Shown here: in pieces, positions 4,355-64,000 of the stretch
How the letters are laid out: each line of letters opens with the position of its first letter
How positions within the stretch are numbered: position 1 is the stretch's first letter
Source of the DNA: Rhodanobacteraceae bacterium
Lineage (GTDB): Bacteria; Pseudomonadota; Gammaproteobacteria; Xanthomonadales; Rhodanobacteraceae
DNA: 64,000 nt
Reading direction: 5' to 3'
Assembly: GCA_039923855.1 (NCBI GenBank)
Contig: JBDTBW010000014.1
Location: 15,522-79,521 of the forward strand
Notes under the pieces: generated by a model
Databases searched by the model: none
What the model was told of the DNA's origin: nothing
Seen by the model: the letters and a program-made list of their open reading frames with translations, nothing else
Position numbers and translations under genes: made by a program

Positions 4355-6312
4355 CAGCACGGATCCAATTCGTGGCGGCCATAAAAATGTGCCAGCGCCC
4401 CCGGATTCGCCAGCGCGTCGGCGTTCTTCACCGGCTCGCCGTGGATTGCCGCGCGCACGGCAAGTTCGCTGATCTTGCCGGAGATCGTGCGCGGGATGTC
4501 GGCAACTTGCAGGATAATTGCGGGCACGTGGCGCGGGGTGGTGTTGTCGCGGATTTGTTTTTTTATTCTTTCGCGCAGCGGATCATCCAGCGCCGCGTTC
4601 TCGCGCAGACGCACGAACAGCACGATGCGCTCATCATTTTGCCAACGCTGGCCGACCACGACCGATTCCAGCACTTCCGACAATTGCTCGACCTGGCGGT
4701 AGATTTCCGCGGTGCCGATGCGCACGCCGCCGGGATTGAGCGTGGCATCCGAGCGGCCGTAAATGATCACGCCGTCGTGGGCGGTGAGTTCCGCGCGGTC
4801 GCCGTGGCACCACACGCCCGGCACTTTCGAGAAATACGCGGCATGATATTTTTCGCCGTCCGGGTCGCTCCAGAACGCTACCGGCATCGACGGAAATGGC
4901 GCGGCGCAGGACAGTTCGCCGGGCTGTTCGCGCACCGGCTTGCCGTCCTCGCAGAGGATTTCGACCTTCATGCCGAGGCCGCGGCATTGCAGTTCGCCGC
5001 GATAAACGGGCAGCAACGGATTGCCCAGCGCGAAGCAGGAGACGATGTCGGTGCCGCCGGAGATCGACGACAGCAACACGCGCTCTTTCACGTCTCGGTA
5101 AACGTAGTCGAAACTCTCCGGCGACAGTGGCGAGCCGGTGGAGAGGATCGTCTTCAGCGCGGTGAGCTTGTGGGTCTCGCGCGGACGGACGCCCATTTTC
5201 GCCGTGGCGTCGATCCACTTGGCACTGGCGCCGAACACGCTGATGCCGACTTCATCGGCGAGATCCCACAGCGATTTGCCACCGGGCCACGTCGGCGAGC
5301 CGTCGTACAGCACCACCACGGCGCCCACCGCGAGTGATGAGACCAGCCAGTTCCACATCATCCATCCGCAAGTCGTGTAATAAAAAATCCGGTCTTCGCG
5401 TTTCAAATCCGTGTGCAGCACCAATTCCTTCAAATGCTGCAACAAGGTGCCGCCGGCGCCGTGCACGATGCACTTGGGTACGCCTGTGGTGCCGGACGAA
5501 TACATGATGTAGAGCGGATGCTCGAACGATGTTGACTCGAACTCGATCGCGTGTTCGCCGTCGCCGGCGAAATCGTGCCAGCTCACCGCATCGCGCAAGC
5601 CGTCCAGTTGCAGCGTGTCGCCGGAATAGGGGATCACCACGCAGCGCTCGATCGATGGGATCGCGTCGAGCACCTCGCGCATCTTGGCCTGACAATCATG
5701 ACGCTTGCCGCCGTAAGCGTAGGCGTCCGCGCAGAACAGCACCCTGGGTTCGATCTGGCCGAAACGGTCGAGTACGCCTTGCACGCCAAAATCCGGCGAA
5801 CACGAGGACCAGGTCGCGCCCAATGACGCCGCAGCCAGCATCGCAATCACGGTTTCCGGAATGTTGGGTAGAAAGCCGGCGACGCGATCGCCCTTGGTCA
5901 CGCCGCTTTGTTTCAGTGCGTACGCGATCCTGCCGACTTCGCTGCGCAATTGCGCGTAGGAATATTCGCGCGCGTGGCCCCATTCGTTGCGGAAGATCAG
6001 CGCGGGTTTGTCGTCCTTGAAGCGCAGCAGGTTCTGCGCGAAGTTGAGCCGCACGCCCGGAAACCATTGCGCGCCGGGCATCTTGTCGGCATCGACCAGC
6101 ACCGGCTCGAACTCACCGGTGGCGCGCACGCCGCAGAACTTCCACACCAGCGGCCAGAATTTTTCCGGATGGCAGGTCGAGAAGTCGTACAGCGACGGAT
6201 AATCCACGATCGATTCGTCGGCCTGCTCGCGCGCGAAACGCAGGAAGCGGCTCAAGTTGGCGCGCTCGATACGTTCGGGCGAAGGTTGCCAGAGCGGGGA
6301 GTCGACGGTCAT
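4354..6312 (-). CDS. aacS: Acetoacetyl-CoA synthetase (acetoacetate-CoA ligase, AMP-forming)
   Basis: About 650 aa. [27 protein letters not shown]-terminus and [17 protein letters not shown]-binding motif. The ORF-track extension up to 6417 runs into a REP element, so I start at the ATG at 6312. Confidence 0.85.
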
Positions 6313-25066: not shown

Positions 25067-26167
25067 ATGTCGAAACACACCATCTTGAATGCGACCCACC
25101 GCGCCGCCGGCGCCAGAATGGTGGACTTCGGCGGTTGGGACATGCCGCTCCATTACGGTTCGCAGATCGAGGAGCACCACGCGGTGCGCCGCGACGCCGG
25201 CATGTTCGATGTCTCGCACATGACCGTGGTCGATTTGCATGGCGCGCGCTGCCGCGATTTTCTGCGACTTCTGCTGGCCAACAATGTCGACAAGTTGAAG
25301 ACGCCCGGCAAGGCGCTGTACTCGTGCATGTTGAACGAGCGCGGCGGCGTGATCGACGATCTGATCGCATATTTCCTGGCCGCGGATTTTTTCCGCTTGA
25401 TAGTTAATGCGGCCACGCGCGAAAAGGATCTGGCATGGATCAATGCGCAAGCCGGGGCGTTCGGCGTCGCTGTCAAGGAGCGCGCGGAGCTCGCGATGAT
25501 CGCGGTGCAGGGCCCGAACGCGCGCGGCAAGGTGTTATCGCTCATGTCCGGCGAATCGCGCGATCGTGTTGCGGGCTTGGGTAAATTCGCCGCCTGCGCT
25601 GCGCAAGGCCCGGGTGGGATGGAGTTGTTCGTGGCGCGCACCGGCTATACCGGCGAGGACGGTTTCGAAATCATCGTGCCCGAATCGAACGCGGCGGGGC
25701 TGTGGAATGCGCTGGCCGAGGCAGGTGTCGCGCCGGCGGGCCTGGGTGCGCGCGACACGTTGCGGCTGGAGGCCGGCATGAATCTCTATGGTCAGGACAT
25801 GGACGAAAACGCCACGCCGTGGGAAGCGGGACTGGCGTGGACGGTCGCGCTGGATGCGGATCGCGATTTCATCGGTCGCGCCGCGCTTGAAAAACAAAAA
25901 GGCGACGGCGTGCCGCGCGAACTGGTCGGCGTGGCACTGGATGGCAAGGGCGTGTTGCGGCACGGCCAGCGCGTACTCACGGAGCGCGGTGATGGAGAAA
26001 TCCTGTCCGGCATTTTTTCGCCCACGCTCGGCAAGTCGATCGCGTTCGCGCGGGTACCGGTTGGCGCGAAGGAAAACCTGCGTGTGGACATGCGTGGCCG
26101 CGAGTTGCCGTTGCGGGCGGTGAAATACCCGTTTGTCCGCGATGGTAAAGCTTGTGATGGCATGTAG
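25067..26167 (+). CDS. gcvT: Glycine cleavage system aminomethyltransferase (T protein)
   Basis: [52 protein letters not shown] is a canonical GcvT N-terminus. Confidence 0.95.
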
Positions 26168-26262
26168 ATTCCCTCCCCCAGCGGGGAAGGGGTGGGGTGG
26201 GGGTATTCCACCAATGGTGGCCGCAAGATCCCATCCCAGCCTTCCCCGCTGGGGGAAGGAAA
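26168..26262. repeat. Pair of inverted REP-like units between gcvT and gcvH
   Basis: CCCTCCCCCAGCGGGGAAGGGGTGGGGTGGGGG and, inverted, CCCATCCCAGCCTTCCCCGCTGGGGGAAGG. Together they can form a long hairpin. Confidence 0.8.
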
Positions 26263-26354
26263 CGATCCAGAACGGCGGCAGCGGCGCATTGTTTCTGCAT
26301 CGCGCGTTGCGGCTAGAATCGCGTTTCCGGAATACCGACAGCAGGATCGGACCC

Positions 26355-26756
26355 ATGAGCGAGATACCCGGCGATCTTAAATTCCTGAAGTCCCATGAAT
26401 GGGTGCGCGTCGAGGACGCCGAGCAGGTGCGCATCGGCGTTTCCGATCACGCGCAGAGCCAGCTCGGTGATCTGGTTTATGTCGAGCTGCCCAATGTTGG
26501 CGATCACGTCGAAGCCGGCAACGCCTGCGCGGTGGTGGAATCGGTCAAGGCGGCCTCCGACGTGTACGCGCCGGTCAGCGGCGAAGTGATTGCGGTCAAC
26601 GAGATACTTTCGGACAAGCCCGAGACCATCAACGAGGACGCCTATGGCGACGGCTGGCTGTTCTTGATCAAACCGGATGCCGAATTGAAGGATGAACTGG
26701 CCGAGTTGCTCGACCCGGATGATTACGCCGAGTTGATCGAGGGCGACGAGGACTGA
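26355..26756 (+). CDS. gcvH: Glycine cleavage system H protein
   Basis: [21 protein letters not shown]... and lipoyl-lysine motif [18 protein letters not shown]. The ORF-track start at 26133 reads through the REP pair. Confidence 0.95.
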
Positions 26757-27184
26757 TCGCCGCGATCGGGGTTCGAGAATCGGAAACCGGAAACCGGAAG
26801 TCGAGAGAAAATGACCGCGTCGCGCAACAGGAAATTTTTCCGTTGCGCATACGTCGATCGAATACTTCGCGCGCAAAACCGATCGGTGGAATTGCACTTC
26901 TTGTGGAGCGGTTCCGGATCGGACGGTGTGCCGCGGATGCGCGCAGCGGGACCAAACGGGCGTGCGCATCGACTCTTTTCCCGCCGCGCCGACAAAAACT
27001 TGCAGCTCGGGTTTTACCGCTGTTCAGTCGGATTCGAGGCGCCTCGAACGGCGAAGCGCGGCGTGCATTCGCGCGGCTTGTTGTTTATCACGAGCGGCAC
27101 GACAAGACATTTGTCACCCGCGTGAAAGCCATACAGGAAAAGGCTTACGTGATGACGCCATGATTTTTGCAAAGCAATTTATTT

Positions 27185-27200
27185 GGACGTCTATCCGTCC
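27185..27200. promoter_or_regulatory. Weak candidate tandem met boxes upstream of the metJ-like gene
   Basis: GGACGTCT (7/8 to AGACGTCT) immediately followed by ATCCGTCC (5/8). They lie about 160 nt upstream of the ATG at 27358. Confidence 0.25.
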
Positions 27201-27298
27201 GAACGATCCCGTGTGGTGCGCACGACAATTACTTCGAAATGTGTTTATGGTCGAGTGTCGGAGTTCGCGCAAGGTCTTCATCCGCCGCAAAAAAACGA

Positions 27299-27327
27299 TT
27301 GACAGCGCGTATTGACAGGAATAGTTT
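27299..27327 (+). promoter_or_regulatory. Candidate sigma70 promoter for the metJ-like gene
   Basis: TTGACA, 17-nt spacer, TAGTTT, about 30 nt upstream of the ATG. Pattern match only. Confidence 0.3.
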
Positions 27328-27357
27328 TTGCGCCCGACGACATGCGTCGAAGGAAAT

Positions 27358-27864
27358 ATGCCGGCTGCCAAGTACATCGAGCCTTATATCGAGCATGGTC
27401 ACAAGTGTGACCGGGTGAGAAAAGTCACCGTCTCGATTCCGCTGCATGTGCTCCGGTTGCTTTCCGACGAACGTACACGTCGTCAGGTGTTGAATCTGCG
27501 GCACGCCAGCAACAGCGATCTTTTGTGCGAGGCGTTCCTGCATGCGTTTACTGGGCAACCACTGCCAACTGATGAGGAGCTGAGAAGAACCATGGCTATG
27601 AAAAAAGCTGCGAAGAAATCCGCCAAGAAGGCGGCGAAGAAATCCACCAAACGCGCCAAGGCCCGCAAACCGGCCCGCGCCAAGACCGCTTCGGCACGCA
27701 AGACCGCCAAGCGCAAGACCGCCCGCAAGGCCGCCAAGAAACCGGCGCGCAAGCGTGCGACCAAGAAGAAGGCCCGCAAGGCGCCTGCCAAGAAGGCCGT
27801 GATGGCGAAAGCCGCGCGCGCCAGCAAGGCATCGAAGTCGAAAGCGAAGTCGAAGAAGAAGTAA
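27358..27864 (+). CDS. metJ: MetJ (Met repressor) core domain fused to a ~90-aa histone-H1-like Lys/Ala-rich tail
   Basis: Residues 1-75 ([75 protein letters not shown]) align with E. coli MetJ, with most positions identical. The remainder is [28 protein letters not shown]... An AAGGAAAT SD-like sequence precedes the ATG at 27358. Confidence 0.85.
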
Positions 27865-27985
27865 GAGAAGGTCCACTGTCAAGCAACAGCAACAGCTGAC
27901 GCATACCATAACGATAAGCTTGGCTCTCCCTGCGGTTGCCCAGCGCAGGGGGAGCTAAGGCAAACTTCCATTGCAGCACTTCGTT

Positions 27986-28017
27986 AGCCCCGGTACTTAC
28001 CGGGGCTTTCCGTTTTC
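27986..28017 (+). terminator. Rho-independent terminator after the metJ-like gene
   Basis: AGCCCCGG-TACTTA-CCGGGGCT stem-loop followed by TTCCGTTTTC. Confidence 0.7.
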
Positions 28018-28054
28018 TAGGGAGCAGTTTGTAAAGCTACTGCGCTCGGCATCT

Positions 28055-28232
28055 TGCGCGCCGGCGGTGCTCGTTGCGCGCCGGCGGTGCTCGGATCAGG
28101 CCCGGTACATGGATGTACCGCTTTGGGGCCAAGGAATCCTCATGTATTGACATATACACTCCGGTTCCTGCGCTCCGGCGGCGCGCAACCTGCCTTCGCT
28201 CGCGACGCTTTTCAAATTGCTCTGGCGCGTTC
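28055..28232. repeat. Left copy of a ~160-bp repeat (inverted partner at 33807-33972)
   Basis: Hand alignment with the reverse complement of 33807-33972. The core GGATCAGGCCCGGTACATGGATGTACCGCTTTGGGGCCAAGGAATCCTCATGTA...GTTCCTGCGCTCCGGCGGCGCGCAACCTGCCTTCGCTCG differs at only a handful of positions. The left copy carries a 20-nt tandem duplication (TTGCGCGCCGGCGGTGCTCG x2). Confidence 0.85.
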
Positions 28233-28439
28233 ATCTCGTTCAAAGCGCCCAAATCGACAACGGCTTGGCATTTGCCCGCGCGGGATATTGGCGCTATGTT
28301 TCGGCCGTCGCGCGGGCGCGCGGCGGGGGCCGCGATCCCTTGCAAGGAAACCAGGCGCATTGCGTGCGCCGATGGAACGTTTCATGCAAGCAGATCCGGT
28401 GTGGCGCGGCTTTCGCGCAGTCCAGGTGAGCCCAGACCC

Positions 28440-29489
28440 ATGTCCACAACGATTCTTTCGGCCGATTCCGTTGTTTCCGCGCGCGCGCGATTGCGCCTCG
28501 CCGCCGCGACTTCGTTCGCGCTGTTGCTCTGCGCTTGCGGTGGCGGTAACGCGCCACCGAACGCCAACGCCCCGGTGCCGAAGCCGGCAGCGTCCGCGCC
28601 GGCGCCAGCCGTTCCCGCGGCGGCACCCGCGCCTTCGTCCACCGTTGCGGCGGCCGAACAAGCGGCGCAGGCGGCACAGGCCAGGATGGAAACGATGAGT
28701 GTCCAACAATTGCTGGCCGAGGCGCGCACCGCGTTCGGTCAGCAGCGGCTGCTCGCGCCAAAAGGTAACAATGCCTTCGAATATTATGAAAAGGCGCTGC
28801 AAAAAGATCCGAAGAACCAGGTCGCGCAGGACGCGTTGCGCGAAGCGTTCCCGGTCGGCGCCAACATGGTCGAGCAGACGATCGGCCAGAACAATTACGA
28901 CGAGGCGCAACGCGAAATCGATTTGCTGGCCAAGGCCGACCCCAGCAATTACACGTTGACGATCCTGCGTTCCAAGCTGGAGGCCGCGAAAAGGCAACAA
29001 CAGCGCGCGGACGCATTGAAAGCCAAGCAAGCCGCCGATCTCGCCGCCAAGCAAGCCGAGATCGCCAAGGCGGCCGCGGCTGCGGCAGCCAAGGCCGCCG
29101 CGCCCCCGCCCGCACCAGCGCCCGCGCCGGTCGTCCAGCAACCGGTGGTGGAGCAGCCCAAACCCGTGCCGGTGCAAGCGGCGCCTGAGCCGCCGCCGCC
29201 GAAACCGGCAGGCGAAACGCGCGGCGCGGAGCCGATCAGCCAGGCAGCGCCGAACTATCCGCTCGAGGCCGCGCGCAATCAGACCTCGGGTTACGCGGTG
29301 GTCGAGTTCACGGTAAATGCGGATGGCTCGGTCAGCGGTGCGCGCGTCACCGACTCGCAACCGCCGCGCGTCTTCAACAGCGCCGCGATTCAAGCGGTCT
29401 CGCGCTCGCGCTACCGCCCGGCACTTAAAGACGGCCAACCGGTCTCCAGCAGTTTGCAGCGGCGCGTCGACTTCAAATTCGGGGGGTGA
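28440..29489 (+). CDS. Probable lipoprotein with a Pro/Ala-rich linker and a C-terminal TonB domain
   Basis: FALLLCACGG lipobox-like signal, APPPAPAPAPVVQQP linker, and C-terminal YPLEAARNQTSGYAVVEFTVNADGSV...RYRPALKDGQPV (TonB_C). Start at the ATG at 28440, in frame with the 28074 ORF. Confidence 0.8.
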   Translation: MSTTILSADSVVSARARLRLAAATSFALLLCACGGGNAPPNANAPVPKPAASAPAPAVPAAAPAPSSTVAAAEQAAQAAQARMETMSVQQLLAEARTAFGQQRLLAPKGNNAFEYYEKALQKDPKNQVAQDALREAFPVGANMVEQTIGQNNYDEAQREIDLLAKADPSNYTLTILRSKLEAAKRQQQRADALKAKQAADLAAKQAEIAKAAAAAAAKAAAPPPAPAPAPVVQQPVVEQPKPVPVQAAPEPPPPKPAGETRGAEPISQAAPNYPLEAARNQTSGYAVVEFTVNADGSVSGARVTDSQPPRVFNSAAIQAVSRSRYRPALKDGQPVSSSLQRRVDFKFGG

Positions 29490-61950: not shown

Positions 61951-63087
61951 TCAAGCCGGCGCGCTGGCCTCGATAAATAGTGAATAGTGCGCATCGCCAT
62001 GCCTGGCGCTGGCGGAATGACTGGCGCGATCCACTCGAAGTTCGGGAACGGCGCTGGCGTCGAAGTCCGAGCGCACGATATCGACGAATCCAGCGCGGCC
62101 CAGGGTCGCCGACAGGGTTTCGTAGTCGTAACCGAATTTGTGGCTCATCAACAACCACGCCGGGTGCGGCCCGGCGCCAGCGTAGGCAAGGAAATGTTCG
62201 ATGCGCGTGGTCAGTGCGATATCGCCGCCCCAATTGGGCACGCGTCCCGCGAACCAGTCTAGATCGTTGCGAACATAAGCATCGATCGCCTGCCCGATAT
62301 CGGGGACCACGATGCGGAGGCGGCCACGGGGTGTCAGCACCCGCCGCAATTCACCGATGAAGTTATCGACTTCGCCCGGGTACCAGAGATGTTCGAGAAA
62401 ATGCGCGAGATAAATGAAATCCGTGCTGCCATCCGCGAAAGGAAGCCCCCACAACAGATTGAGCGCCAGCGGAGACGGATGACGGTCGATATTGATCCAG
62501 CCAGGCAAGTGCTGATCGCCGCAACCGATATGCAATTTCAATCCCCGGCTTTGCCGATCCAGTCCGAGCTTCGTCAGTTGACCGCGCAGATATTCCGCGC
62601 GTTGTGATGCCAGTTCCCAGCGGATGGCGTTCAACGCCGCGCGCAGGTTGTCCAATCGGTCCTCGATGGCGACCCCGGTCGTGTCCAGAGCCTCCAGCAC
62701 AGTTGCACCCATGCCATTCAGATCGCCGGCAAGCGCGTAAACATCCTGGGCCAGTGCCTTCAGCGCGTTGTTTGCGTGTTCGATGCGACGATCGGCATCT
62801 GTCGGCTTTTCATTCCCGGCCGCAATCAGCACGCCGTGCAGGAGCAAATGCCGCAGCAATGCTTCGGCTTGCGCGCGCTCGCCCGATGGCAAATCGGCAA
62901 GGACGTTCGCCACGTTCCGGGTCTTGGCGAAGTCCAGCAACCAGGCAAGCAAGCTTGAATTATCTGTATGCAAAGCAACGAGGCTTTCTCCGGTCTGCAT
63001 GAATATGCGACCCCCACGTGCGCGTATCGTGGCGTCAGGCGCGAGCATCAGCGCTGCGGGGAGCGGCGTGGAGCTTTGCGTATTCAT
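61951..63087 (-). CDS. Class I SAM-dependent methyltransferase domain protein with an unassigned N-terminal domain
   Basis: [19 protein letters not shown]...[12 protein letters not shown]...[16 protein letters not shown] (Methyltransf_11/23-like). Start probably at the ATG at 63087 (MNTQSS); the ORF runs to 63183. Confidence 0.7.
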
Positions 63088-63216
63088 TCTCCGAGGCAGT
63101 CTATCGCGGTTACGGACTCTGGATGCTGCGCGGGAAGAATGTCGCCGGACGAGGATCATGCCGGGACGGTTTGTGGTTGGCATTTTCGCTTGCTGCTCGT
63201 GGCTACTTAAATGTCT

Positions 63217-63240
63217 GGGCGTATAGACGTCTAAACGTCT
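63217..63240. promoter_or_regulatory. Tandem MetJ operator (met boxes) upstream of metB
   Basis: Three in-phase 8-mers: GGGCGTAT (5/8), AGACGTCT (8/8), AAACGTCT (7/8), scored against the AGACGTCT consensus. They end 1 nt before the putative -35. Confidence 0.65.
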
Positions 63241-63241
63241 A

Positions 63242-63270
63242 TTGACGTATAAACTGAAGCGCGCTAGAGT
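63242..63270 (+). promoter_or_regulatory. Candidate sigma70 promoter of metB
   Basis: TTGACG, 17-nt spacer, TAGAGT. The predicted start site is a few nt before the riboswitch P1 helix. Confidence 0.5.
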
Positions 63271-63281
63271 GTGTCCAACAA

Positions 63282-63400
63282 CCCATCATGACCGGCTGAG
63301 GGACAGGCCCTTTGAAGCCGGGGCAACCCGCGCGGAATCGCCCGCGCAAGGTGCCAAGTCCTGCGGAGATCCGGTTCAGGGCCGGATCGCCGGGAGATGG
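63282..63400 (+). promoter_or_regulatory. SAM-I (S-box) riboswitch in the metB leader
   Basis: CCATCATGACCGGCTGAGGGACAGGCCCTTTGAAGCCGGGGCAACC[P3 hairpin CGCGCGG-AATC-GCCCGCGC]AAGGTGCCAAGTCCTGC...GAGATGG matches the S-box core (ATCA.GA..GG..GAGGGA..GGCCC..TGAA.CC..GCAACC...GGTGC.AA.TCC...AGATG). P1 pairs CCATC with GATGG. Confidence 0.8.
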
Positions 63401-63497
63401 TTCGAAGCGTGGGCGCGCGGGCACTCCTCCCTTCGCGCGTCCGCGCCGAGACCTCCGACCGCCGCATGGACGCCGATGCCACGGGCCGGAGATCGCG

Positions 63498-64000
63498 ATG
63501 AGCCTCGACATACATTTCGCCAAATCCACGCCACGTGCATCGTGTACCCGCGCGGTGCGTGCGGGTATCGAAACCGACACCCAGCACGGCGCGGTGGTGC
63601 CGCCGCTACACCTTTCCAGCAATTTTGCCTTCGCCGGCTTCAATGGGAAGCGCAATTACGACTACACCCGCAGCGGCAATCCGACCCGCGATTTACTCGC
63701 CGATGCCTTGTGCGAACTGGAAGGCGGCGCCGGCGCGGTGGTGACGGGGAGCGGCATGGCGGCTGTCGCGCTGGTACTGGAATTGGTGCCGCCCGATGCC
63801 ACGATCGTCGTCGCGCACGATTGCTACGGTGGCACCTGGCGATTGCTGGATGCGTGGGCGAAGAAGGGGCGTTTCAAGGCGTTGTTCGTCGATCTCACCG
63901 ATACGCGCGCATTGGCCACGGCATTGGCGCAAAGGCCGGCGCTGGTGTGGGTGGAAACGCCCTCCAATCCGCTGCTGCGGATCACCGATATCCGCCACGT
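63498..64000 (+). CDS. metB: Cystathionine gamma-synthase / O-succinylhomoserine (thiol)-lyase family, 5' part (runs off the window)
   Basis: Own translation from the ATG at 63498: MSLDIHFAKSTPRASCTRAVRAGIETDTQHGAVVPPLHLSSNFAFAGFNGKRNYDYTRSGNPTRDLLADALCELEGGAGAVVTGSGMAAV...HDCYGGTWRLL...ETPSNPLLRITDI. It is collinear with E. coli MetB. GGAGA SD lies 6 nt upstream. Confidence 0.9.
   Translation, partial: MSLDIHFAKSTPRASCTRAVRAGIETDTQHGAVVPPLHLSSNFAFAGFNGKRNYDYTRSGNPTRDLLADALCELEGGAGAVVTGSGMAAVALVLELVPPDATIVVAHDCYGGTWRLLDAWAKKGRFKALFVDLTDTRALATALAQRPALVWVETPSNPLLRITDIRH

Follow-up and report, generated by a model that had tools for sequence, protein, structure and literature searches.

A predicted MetJ operator and a SAM-I riboswitch in series before metB in the Rhodanobacteraceae

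The metB gene of a Rhodanobacteraceae bacterium (assembly GCA_039923855.1) is preceded by in-phase met boxes, the operator sequence of the repressor MetJ, and by a leader RNA with the features of a SAM-I riboswitch. The DNA analysed, called the window throughout, is a stretch of 64,000 nucleotides (nt) of contig JBDTBW010000014.1, and all coordinates are positions within it. The metB transcript probably carries a MetJ operator at its promoter and a SAM-I riboswitch in its leader, so that S-adenosylmethionine (SAM) would shut expression at two successive steps. An earlier reading of this DNA from its letters alone (the original prediction) had placed both at metB, and every sequence element that it listed there is present. 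Its further proposal of two SAM sensors on one transcript is backed by these elements, by conserved islands in orthologous loci and by the preservation of the critical residues of MetJ; dual control by MetJ and riboswitch is supported by this comparative evidence and remains predicted as to function. The component families, MetJ with its met boxes and SAM-I, are already known. As far as the searchable literature shows, the combination on one operon, the Rhodanobacteraceae MetJ regulon and the architecture of a tailed MetJ are new, and no report of a MetJ operator and a SAM-I riboswitch on one gene was found in that literature. The exact sequence is found in five metagenome DNA runs from soil and rhizosphere.

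The metB leader and its conservation

The original prediction described three in-phase 8-mers that end 1 nt before the promoter, with a perfect consensus box in the middle. The three boxes and their position are confirmed, but the count was too low, since a fourth in-phase box, the most distal one, had been missed (Table 1). Three of the four boxes have 9.3-12.6 bits each and the fourth is weak (3.0 bits). The boxes were scored with the half-box matrix and the thresholds of Augustus and Spicer (site 12.58 bits, per box 3.15 bits; PMC3228920), by which the metB operator at 63225 reaches 23.3 bits (12.58 + 10.73) and passes both the site and the per-box threshold. Exactly two sites in the window pass, at 63225 and 27185, compared with a mean of 0.46 in composition-matched shuffles, and they precede metB and metJ, both of them met-regulon genes. 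A concentration of met boxes at met genes across the genome had been anticipated, and these two sites agree with it within the one 64-kb window that was scanned. A search for the 16-mer AGACGTCTAGACGTCT with up to three mismatches gives a single match in the 64 kb, the metB operator, where 0.03 are expected. The promoter next to the boxes is the sole promoter-like match in the 63-64 kb region scanned (62900-64000), and transcription of metB is predicted to start near 63277.

The S-box that the original prediction recognized from its P1 strands and junction motifs is borne out by the covariance model, whose score lies far above the threshold (Table 1) and whose alignment covers model positions 1-108 of 108, that is, the full length. 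It is the single match above threshold in an Rfam scan of the whole window. All four helices, P1-P4, are recovered in the minimum-free-energy fold, and the conserved SAM-I core of GAGGGA, GGCCC, GCAACC, GGUGCCAA and AGAU is present by consensus alignment. The aptamer is on the sense strand, 94 nt upstream of the metB ATG, and has an equivalent leader position in 35 related loci. By covariance score, core, four-helix junction and location, the segment is assigned as a SAM-I riboswitch, with SAM as its predicted ligand.

Table 1. Features of the metB and metJ regions of the window
Feature	Position	Strand	Details
Tandem met boxes upstream of metJ	27185..27200	+	GGACGTCT ATCCGTCC; 14.98 bits; candidate autoregulatory operator, 158 nt upstream of the metJ start codon
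Candidate proximal metJ promoter	27299..27327	+	TTGACA-17-TAGTTT; conserved block TTGACA-17-TAG(T/C)TT; 99 nt downstream of the metJ boxes
metJ	27358..27864	+	MetJ core (residues 1 to ~80) fused to a ~85-residue Lys/Ala/Arg-rich tail
Distal met box	63209..63216	+	AAATGTCT; 6/8 to consensus, 9.34 bits; in phase with the other boxes
Met box	63217..63224	+	GGGCGTAT; 5/8, 2.99 bits; weak box
Met box	63225..63232	+	AGACGTCT; perfect consensus, 12.58 bits
Proximal met box	63233..63240	+	AAACGTCT; 7/8, 10.73 bits; followed by one A, then the -35
Sigma-70-type promoter	63242..63270	+	TTGACG-17-TAGAGT; -35 63242-63247, -10 63265-63270; consensus scan
SAM-I (S-box) aptamer	63280..63403	+	RF00162; 71.8 bits vs gathering score 44.4, E = 7.9e-15
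P1	63283-87 / 63396-400	+	CCAUC / GAUGG
P2	63292-302 / 63308-321	+	minimum-free-energy fold
P3	63322-335 / 63342-355	+	minimum-free-energy fold
P4	63359-376 / 63380-395	+	minimum-free-energy fold
15-bp G+C-rich hairpin	63407..63446	+	arms 63407-21 / 63432-46, between aptamer and sequestor; folds
Anti-Shine-Dalgarno element	63453..63457	+	CUCCG; pairs with the Shine-Dalgarno sequence in minimum-free-energy and centroid folds
Ribosome-binding site	63487..63500	+	CGGAG 63487-91 (GGAG 63488-91), 6-nt spacer, ATG 63498-63500
metB (cystathionine gamma-synthase / O-succinylhomoserine thiol-lyase)	63498..64000	+	PF01053, 141 bits; runs off the end of the window

Relatives were collected with the MetB fragment as query against a single genome of each species, which gave 80 loci (numbered with the prefix L). 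The closest ones (74-81% MetB identity) belong to Rhodanobacter, Frateuria, Fulvimonas, Dokdonella, Luteibacter, Tahibacter and to metagenome-assembled genomes (MAGs) of Rhodanobacteraceae or Lysobacterales. Of the first 40 loci, 35 have a SAM-I aptamer by Rfam. When these 35 leaders and that of the window are aligned on the -35 hexamer, the distance from the -35 to the aptamer start is fixed at 34-39 nt across all 36. In 27 loci, as in the window, the tandem met boxes stop 1 nt short of the -35 (TTGACA in the relatives) in a constant register, with the exception of L018, which has a short deletion. The information per column in these 28 met-box promoters is 0.16 bits far upstream and increases through the weakly conserved distal box 3 (0.49 bits) and box 2 (0.83 bits) to box 1 (1.45 bits), the proximal box 0 (1.47 bits) and the -35 hexamer (1.9 bits), before dropping to 0.18 bits in the promoter spacer. 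The consensus of the two proximal boxes across the 28 promoters is exactly AGACGTCTAGACGTCT. Even the weak 8-mer GGGCGTAT of the window recurs in L011 and L018, and in Rhodanobacter thiooxydans (L004) AGACGTTTAGACGTCT abuts the -35 of the S-box promoter. The riboswitch loci of more distant taxa (Thermomonas, Woeseia and others; L032, L034-L038 and L040) keep the promoter and the aptamer, and boxes are absent from them. With tandem boxes adjoining the -35 of the same riboswitch's promoter in 27 related loci and with unconserved flanks, the arrangement is, on the alignment, not a chance match. It is ancestral to the Rhodanobacteraceae and no peculiarity of this genome.

The specificity of the motif is also apparent on a larger scale. 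In the 643 kb of DNA scanned, all tandem matches of at least 13/16 but one fall into three contexts, namely S-box promoters, the classical metJ-metB intergenic region (in the Aeromonas, Photobacterium, Shewanella and Arsukibacterium controls) and the region upstream of Rhodanobacteraceae metJ. The odd one out, a second tandem match of 13/16 (AGACATATGGACGTCT), is located downstream of metB in a locus from an uncultured Photobacterium (L065, ~4550-4565). Metagenome contigs were scanned with the exact pattern 'box, -35, S-box core', which matched at least 120 stretches. In two short ones the riboswitch has an unusual neighbour. The open reading frame (ORF) behind the riboswitch of L162 (1075 nt) resembles MetX at its N-terminus only, and the aptamer of L200 (1537 nt) ends after P3/J3-4 and is continued by a type IV pilin-like ORF, possibly through a chimeric contig or a rearrangement. 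These were considered as new target genes, but L162 looks like a contig that is short or frameshifted and L200 like one that may be chimeric.

The product of metB is a Cys/Met pyridoxal-phosphate enzyme with PRK08776, the Xanthomonas-type MetB model, as its best NCBIfam match and with up to 81% identity to Rhodanobacteraceae MetB. The usual operon in the relatives is riboswitch-metX-metB-hom, an operon family known from Xanthomonas; in most of them the aptamer is ~1.25 kb upstream of metB, before an alpha/beta-hydrolase gene (a MetX-type homoserine acyltransferase). Where the DNA is long enough, the metagenome matches listed also have metX-metB-hom or part of it. The cultivable relative R. denitrificans likewise has the order box, S-box, metX-metB-hom. 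The riboswitch stands directly before metB in the window, L010, L016 and L018, with hom following in L010, and metB-hom is found in four of the metagenome matches listed (L100, L119, L156 and L188). The window probably has this rarer form, metB-hom. The leaders of L100 and L119 are identical, so that the four metagenome loci supply three distinct leaders and the window-type leaders, with the riboswitch directly before metB, number seven (window, L010, L016, L018, L100, L156 and L188).

On the other side of the operator is a divergent ORF (61951-63183, minus strand, 410 codons) with a weak Methyltransf_11 match and an annotated start 26 nt from the first met box. Control of this ORF by the boxes is unlikely because none of L001-L040 has a homologue of it next to the promoter. 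As the gene upstream of the promoter is unconserved among the relatives, the boxes are taken to belong to the met promoter.

MetJ and the expression platform

The MetJ-like gene of the original prediction is a genuine metJ, located 35 kb from metB within the window. Its product has 131.1 bits with the Pfam MetJ family (PF01340, cut-off 25) and 134.9 with the NCBIfam equivalog NF003622 (cut-off 110), and it matches the Escherichia coli MetJ structures (PDB 1cma) with E = 3e-33. Over 74 residues of the core its identity to E. coli MetJ is 72%. Residues K22, T24, R39, Q43, N52, S53 and F64 align to E. coli K23, T25, R40, Q44, N53, S54 and F65, and helix B is identical to that of E. coli from L56 to P71. 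Going by the 1CMA/1CMC structures, Lys23 and Thr25 presumably make the base contacts of the beta-ribbon, and the region of Phe65 presumably has the helix B role. The canonical architecture of ~105 residues with a C-terminal segment is not found here; the profile match stops at 89 of 97. Residues ~80-168 (27595-27861) form instead a histone-H1-like tail rich in Lys, Ala and Arg, which replaces the acidic E. coli C-terminus. A tail follows the FTGQPLP motif in all 121 homologues compared (120 matches listed and one cluster member), with a median length of 90 residues and a composition of 73% Lys+Ala+Arg+Pro and 45% Lys+Arg. The window protein appears to be a true MetJ by its core and a variant in its architecture, and sequence-specific DNA binding is predicted for it.

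The second site that passes the met-box matrix lies upstream of metJ. Four metJ upstream regions, which are 59% identical overall, share the nearly invariant block TT(T/C)(G/A)GACGTCTAT(C/A)CGTC(C/T), equivalent to 27185-27200 of the window. The metJ-upstream sites of L081-L085 match 13-14 of 16 positions (9828-9843 in L081, L082, L083 and L085; 1133-1148 in L084). metJ is probably autoregulated through these boxes. The candidate proximal promoter of metJ (Table 1) received no call in the consensus promoter scan and is weak in spite of its conservation. The pattern may be that of an autoregulated distal promoter with a second, proximal and possibly constitutive one, by analogy with E. coli metJ, for which autoregulation and a second promoter are described (PMC3228920). 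The gene order gcvT-gcvH-metJ-(RodZ_C)-TonB (25067-29489) recurs on three long contigs (L081, which belongs to the complete genome CP126531.1, L083 and L085), and because of this shared neighbourhood metJ is regarded as a stable chromosomal resident. No glycine riboswitch upstream of gcvT in the window reached the Rfam threshold. When the 80 metB loci were searched with MetJ by tblastn, matches came only from the Aeromonas, Photobacterium, Shewanella and Arsukibacterium controls.

Downstream of the aptamer, the terminator scan has no match and no U-tract follows the 15-bp hairpin, which agrees with the original prediction. The stem of this hairpin is maintained through compensatory changes across the seven window-type leaders. 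The Shine-Dalgarno (SD) sequence GGAGA is present as proposed, but it occupies 63488-63492, one position further on, since 63487-63491 reads CGGAG. Every fold of the window pairs CGGAG (63487-91) with CUCCG (63453-57), and the probability that GGAG is unpaired is at most 0.11 in the ensemble. In 31 leaders an element with CUCC upstream of the SD region is complementary to it, with covarying flanks, as in the anti-SD/SD pairs CCTCTCCGG/ACGGAGAGA, CGTTCTCCGC/ACGGAGAACC and GACTCCGGCC/AGCCGGAG. The energy of the anti-SD:SD duplex relative to shuffles has a mean z of -2.0 in these leaders, and CTCC occurs in 21 of the 31, where 10 are expected. Duplex z-scores were used in place of a column-wise pair count, because the position of the anti-SD in alignment A2 differs by one column among the sequences.

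Because there is no intrinsic terminator and the SD is held by a conserved CUCCG, the riboswitch would act on translation initiation, and translational repression by SD sequestration is the expression mode to which this analysis commits. The original prediction had named translational or Rho-dependent control; the first fits the sequestered SD and the missing terminator, whereas Rho-dependent polarity is possible as a secondary effect (63421-63470 contains 24 C and 13 G). The alignment fold of the seven window-type platforms offers a way to release the SD. In this fold the 3' strand of P1, GGGUC (63399-403), together with CGGG (63391-94), pairs with GAC(U/C)C (63450-54) and 63458-61. Such pairing overlaps the anti-SD and would free the SD, which makes it a plausible candidate anti-sequestor.

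A two-step mechanism can be proposed from these features. SAM-loaded MetJ dimers would bind the two strong boxes (63225-63240) cooperatively, perhaps along with the two weaker upstream ones, and since the boxes sit directly against the -35, bound MetJ would deny RNA polymerase the promoter. Residual transcripts would start ~3-6 nt before the SAM-I aptamer, and in these the anti-SD hairpin formed by CUCCG would hold the SD so that the riboswitch controls translation initiation, as in Xanthomonas campestris. The candidate anti-sequestor formed by the 3' strand of P1 may link the aptamer to SD release. MetJ would probably also repress its own gene via the boxes at 27185-27200.

Points against dual control and alternative readings

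Several points weigh against dual control by MetJ and the riboswitch. Only DNA (metagenome) sequencing runs contain this sequence; no RNA sequencing run with it was found. [quoted passage not shown] The boxes are upstream of the -35 and not over the core promoter, so that repression by occlusion is assumed. On the RNA side, the candidate anti-sequestor has two mismatches in the window, the unpaired probability of the window SD moves only from 0.00 to 0.01 when P1 is enforced or blocked in constrained partition-function folds, and blocking P1 opens the SD in only two of the seven window-type leaders (L016 and L188).

The DAP-seq result invites an alternative in which the riboswitch alone senses SAM, as in Xanthomonas, and in which the tailed MetJ is a non-specific binder of the nucleoid-associated type, with met boxes that are not an operator. 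The missing C-terminal segment of E. coli MetJ and a tail of which 45% is Lys+Arg fit such a binder, and in X. campestris, where metJ is missing, the promoter of the met operon is unresponsive to methionine (PMC6230763). Xanthomonas is an unfair comparison for precisely the reason that it has no metJ. The proximal boxes hold 1.45 bits per column, the 8-bp register and the E. coli consensus in 28 promoters despite decayed flanks, a second conserved met-box site is present upstream of metJ, and the base-reading residues of MetJ are intact; a protein that ignores the boxes would leave all of this without an explanation. The DAP-seq text nowhere mentions S-adenosylmethionine and its authors warn of missing cofactors, and the basic tail and missing SAM could explain the non-specific signal. 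The tail is likely the reason why the R. thiooxydans protein was called 'truncated'; another preprint, which mentions a Rhodanobacter MetJ, labels that protein a putative repressor. A riboswitch acting alone is considered unlikely, and MetJ at the promoter with SAM-I in the leader is kept as the preferred reading.

Another alternative concerns the partner of the SD and was the choice of the original prediction. In this version, CTCCTCCC (63424-31) would be the anti-SD and would mask GGAG once SAM has bound. This tract has complementarity to the SD and is found in the loop of the 15-bp hairpin in four of the seven window-type leaders (window, L010, L156 and L188), among which L156 has a post-hairpin element without CUCC. 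It is missing from L016, L018, L100 and the metX-type leaders, and in all folds of the window it stays an unpaired loop while the SD pairs with 63453-57, so that the proposed pairing with GGAGA is not upheld. As the main sequestor the tract is rejected, and it is kept as a minor and decidedly improbable rival to CUCCG. The hairpin loop CACUCCUCCCUU (63422-63433) that contains it resembles the 3' end of 16S rRNA and is in this respect a mimic of the ribosomal anti-SD, a likeness that can be counted in favour of the rival.

The idea that the conserved block is not a MetJ operator but an A/T-rich enhancer of the UP-element kind, or a site for some other regulator such as SamR, draws on its location (about -37 to -68) in a region occupied by UP elements and activator sites, on a different palindrome at the same place in the related Lysobacterales promoters L034 and L036 and on the SamR sites predicted for metB, metX2 and hom in the Xanthomonadales (PMC4239095), but it is very hard to sustain against a consensus of AGACGTCT repeated every 8 bp with a CG core, which is a met box and neither an UP element nor an ATC...GAT palindrome, against the same motif upstream of metJ and against a scan that recovers the Aeromonas and Vibrionaceae metJ-metB operators with one other match (L065:4550). 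The palindrome of L034 (Thermomonas alba, ~1655-1683) and L036 (a Pseudomonadota MAG, ~1666-1694) is 24 bp long, ATCGCTTTAT-N4-ATAAAGCGAT, and it abuts the -35 upstream of the S-box, which is the position of the met boxes in the Rhodanobacteraceae. It may be a SamR-type site, that is, a different protein sensor before the same riboswitch.

Wider meaning and relation to known systems

MetJ, from enteric-type gammaproteobacteria, and the S-box, from Firmicutes and Xanthomonas, were thought to belong to separate lineages. MetJ homologues have been reported in only five gammaproteobacterial orders (PMC3228920), and in the survey of Leyn et al. (PMC4239095) MetJ was present in none of four Xanthomonadales genomes, for which SamR was proposed instead; that survey did not scan for SAM-I and did not sample the Rhodanobacteraceae. 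The present findings extend the range of MetJ beyond the five orders, provide the Rhodanobacter transcription factor that the DAP-seq study left aside with a motif and targets, and flag a MetJ with a polycationic tail. They also point to a natural case of two sensors of one ligand acting in series, one a protein and one an RNA, in which it can be tested why a sensor is duplicated (to set a threshold, to suppress leakage or to gain speed) and how regulatory layers come to replace each other in evolution. A broader joint reading, advanced tentatively and with slightly more doubt than belief, is that the Rhodanobacteraceae have a conserved SAM 'double lock', with MetJ at the promoter and SAM-I at the ribosome-binding site, that their undescribed tailed MetJ is part repressor and part nucleoid-associated protein, and that the order records how one protein sensor was exchanged for another while the RNA sensor behind it stayed fixed. 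If true, this would account for hundreds of peaks and no motif in a DAP-seq experiment apparently performed without SAM, and the SamR-like palindrome at the same promoter position in the sister family would appear as the site of a different factor.

The closest protein counterpart is the enterobacterial MetJ-metB system of E. coli, with which the window shares the repressor family, the tandem AGACGTCT consensus of at least two boxes, the target MetB and, probably, metJ autoregulation. The two differ in that the window comes from a host outside the five reported MetJ orders, that its metJ is 35 kb from metB whereas E. coli metJ and metBL are divergent, that its MetJ has an ~85-residue polycationic tail and not the E. 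coli C-terminus, and that a riboswitch follows the operator. The closest RNA counterpart is SAM-I(Xcc) of the X. campestris metA-metB-hom operon (PMC7270179, PMC6230763), which has the same aptamer class and operon family and no intrinsic terminator. It is mainly translational; its SD is sequestered without SAM, and opening requires uncharged tRNAfMet (PMC7270179), whose binding to the anti-SD is described for X. campestris only. In both systems an anti-SD hairpin holds the SD and persists even in SAM-free models. Unlike the promoter in Xanthomonas, which has no metJ, the promoter of the window has met boxes, and its operon does not have metX as a first gene.

The succession of a MetJ operator and a riboswitch on one transcript has a precedent in Yersinia btuB, which in the study of Augustus and Spicer was the only case of a riboswitch (for B12) behind met boxes, and where the boxes must precede the riboswitch and hence lie far from the start codon (PMC3228920). 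There the two sensors have two ligands, SAM and B12, whereas both sensors of the window, MetJ and the riboswitch, are predicted to read SAM.

The manner in which MntR acts at the mntP promoter of E. coli is, in its details, part of general background. At mntP one ligand is sensed twice, by the Mn-sensing regulator MntR at the promoter and by a translational yybP-ykoY Mn riboswitch in the leader, with Rho also taking part (PMC11647493). That circuit is activating (ON-type) and serves an exporter; the one proposed here would be a double OFF circuit that serves a biosynthetic operon. The SamR regulon of the sister family resembles the window in having a protein regulator predicted on metB, metX2 and hom (PMC4239095), but SamR belongs to a different, SahR-like protein family and has a different motif. 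The pairing of a transcription factor with an S-box may be general in the order.

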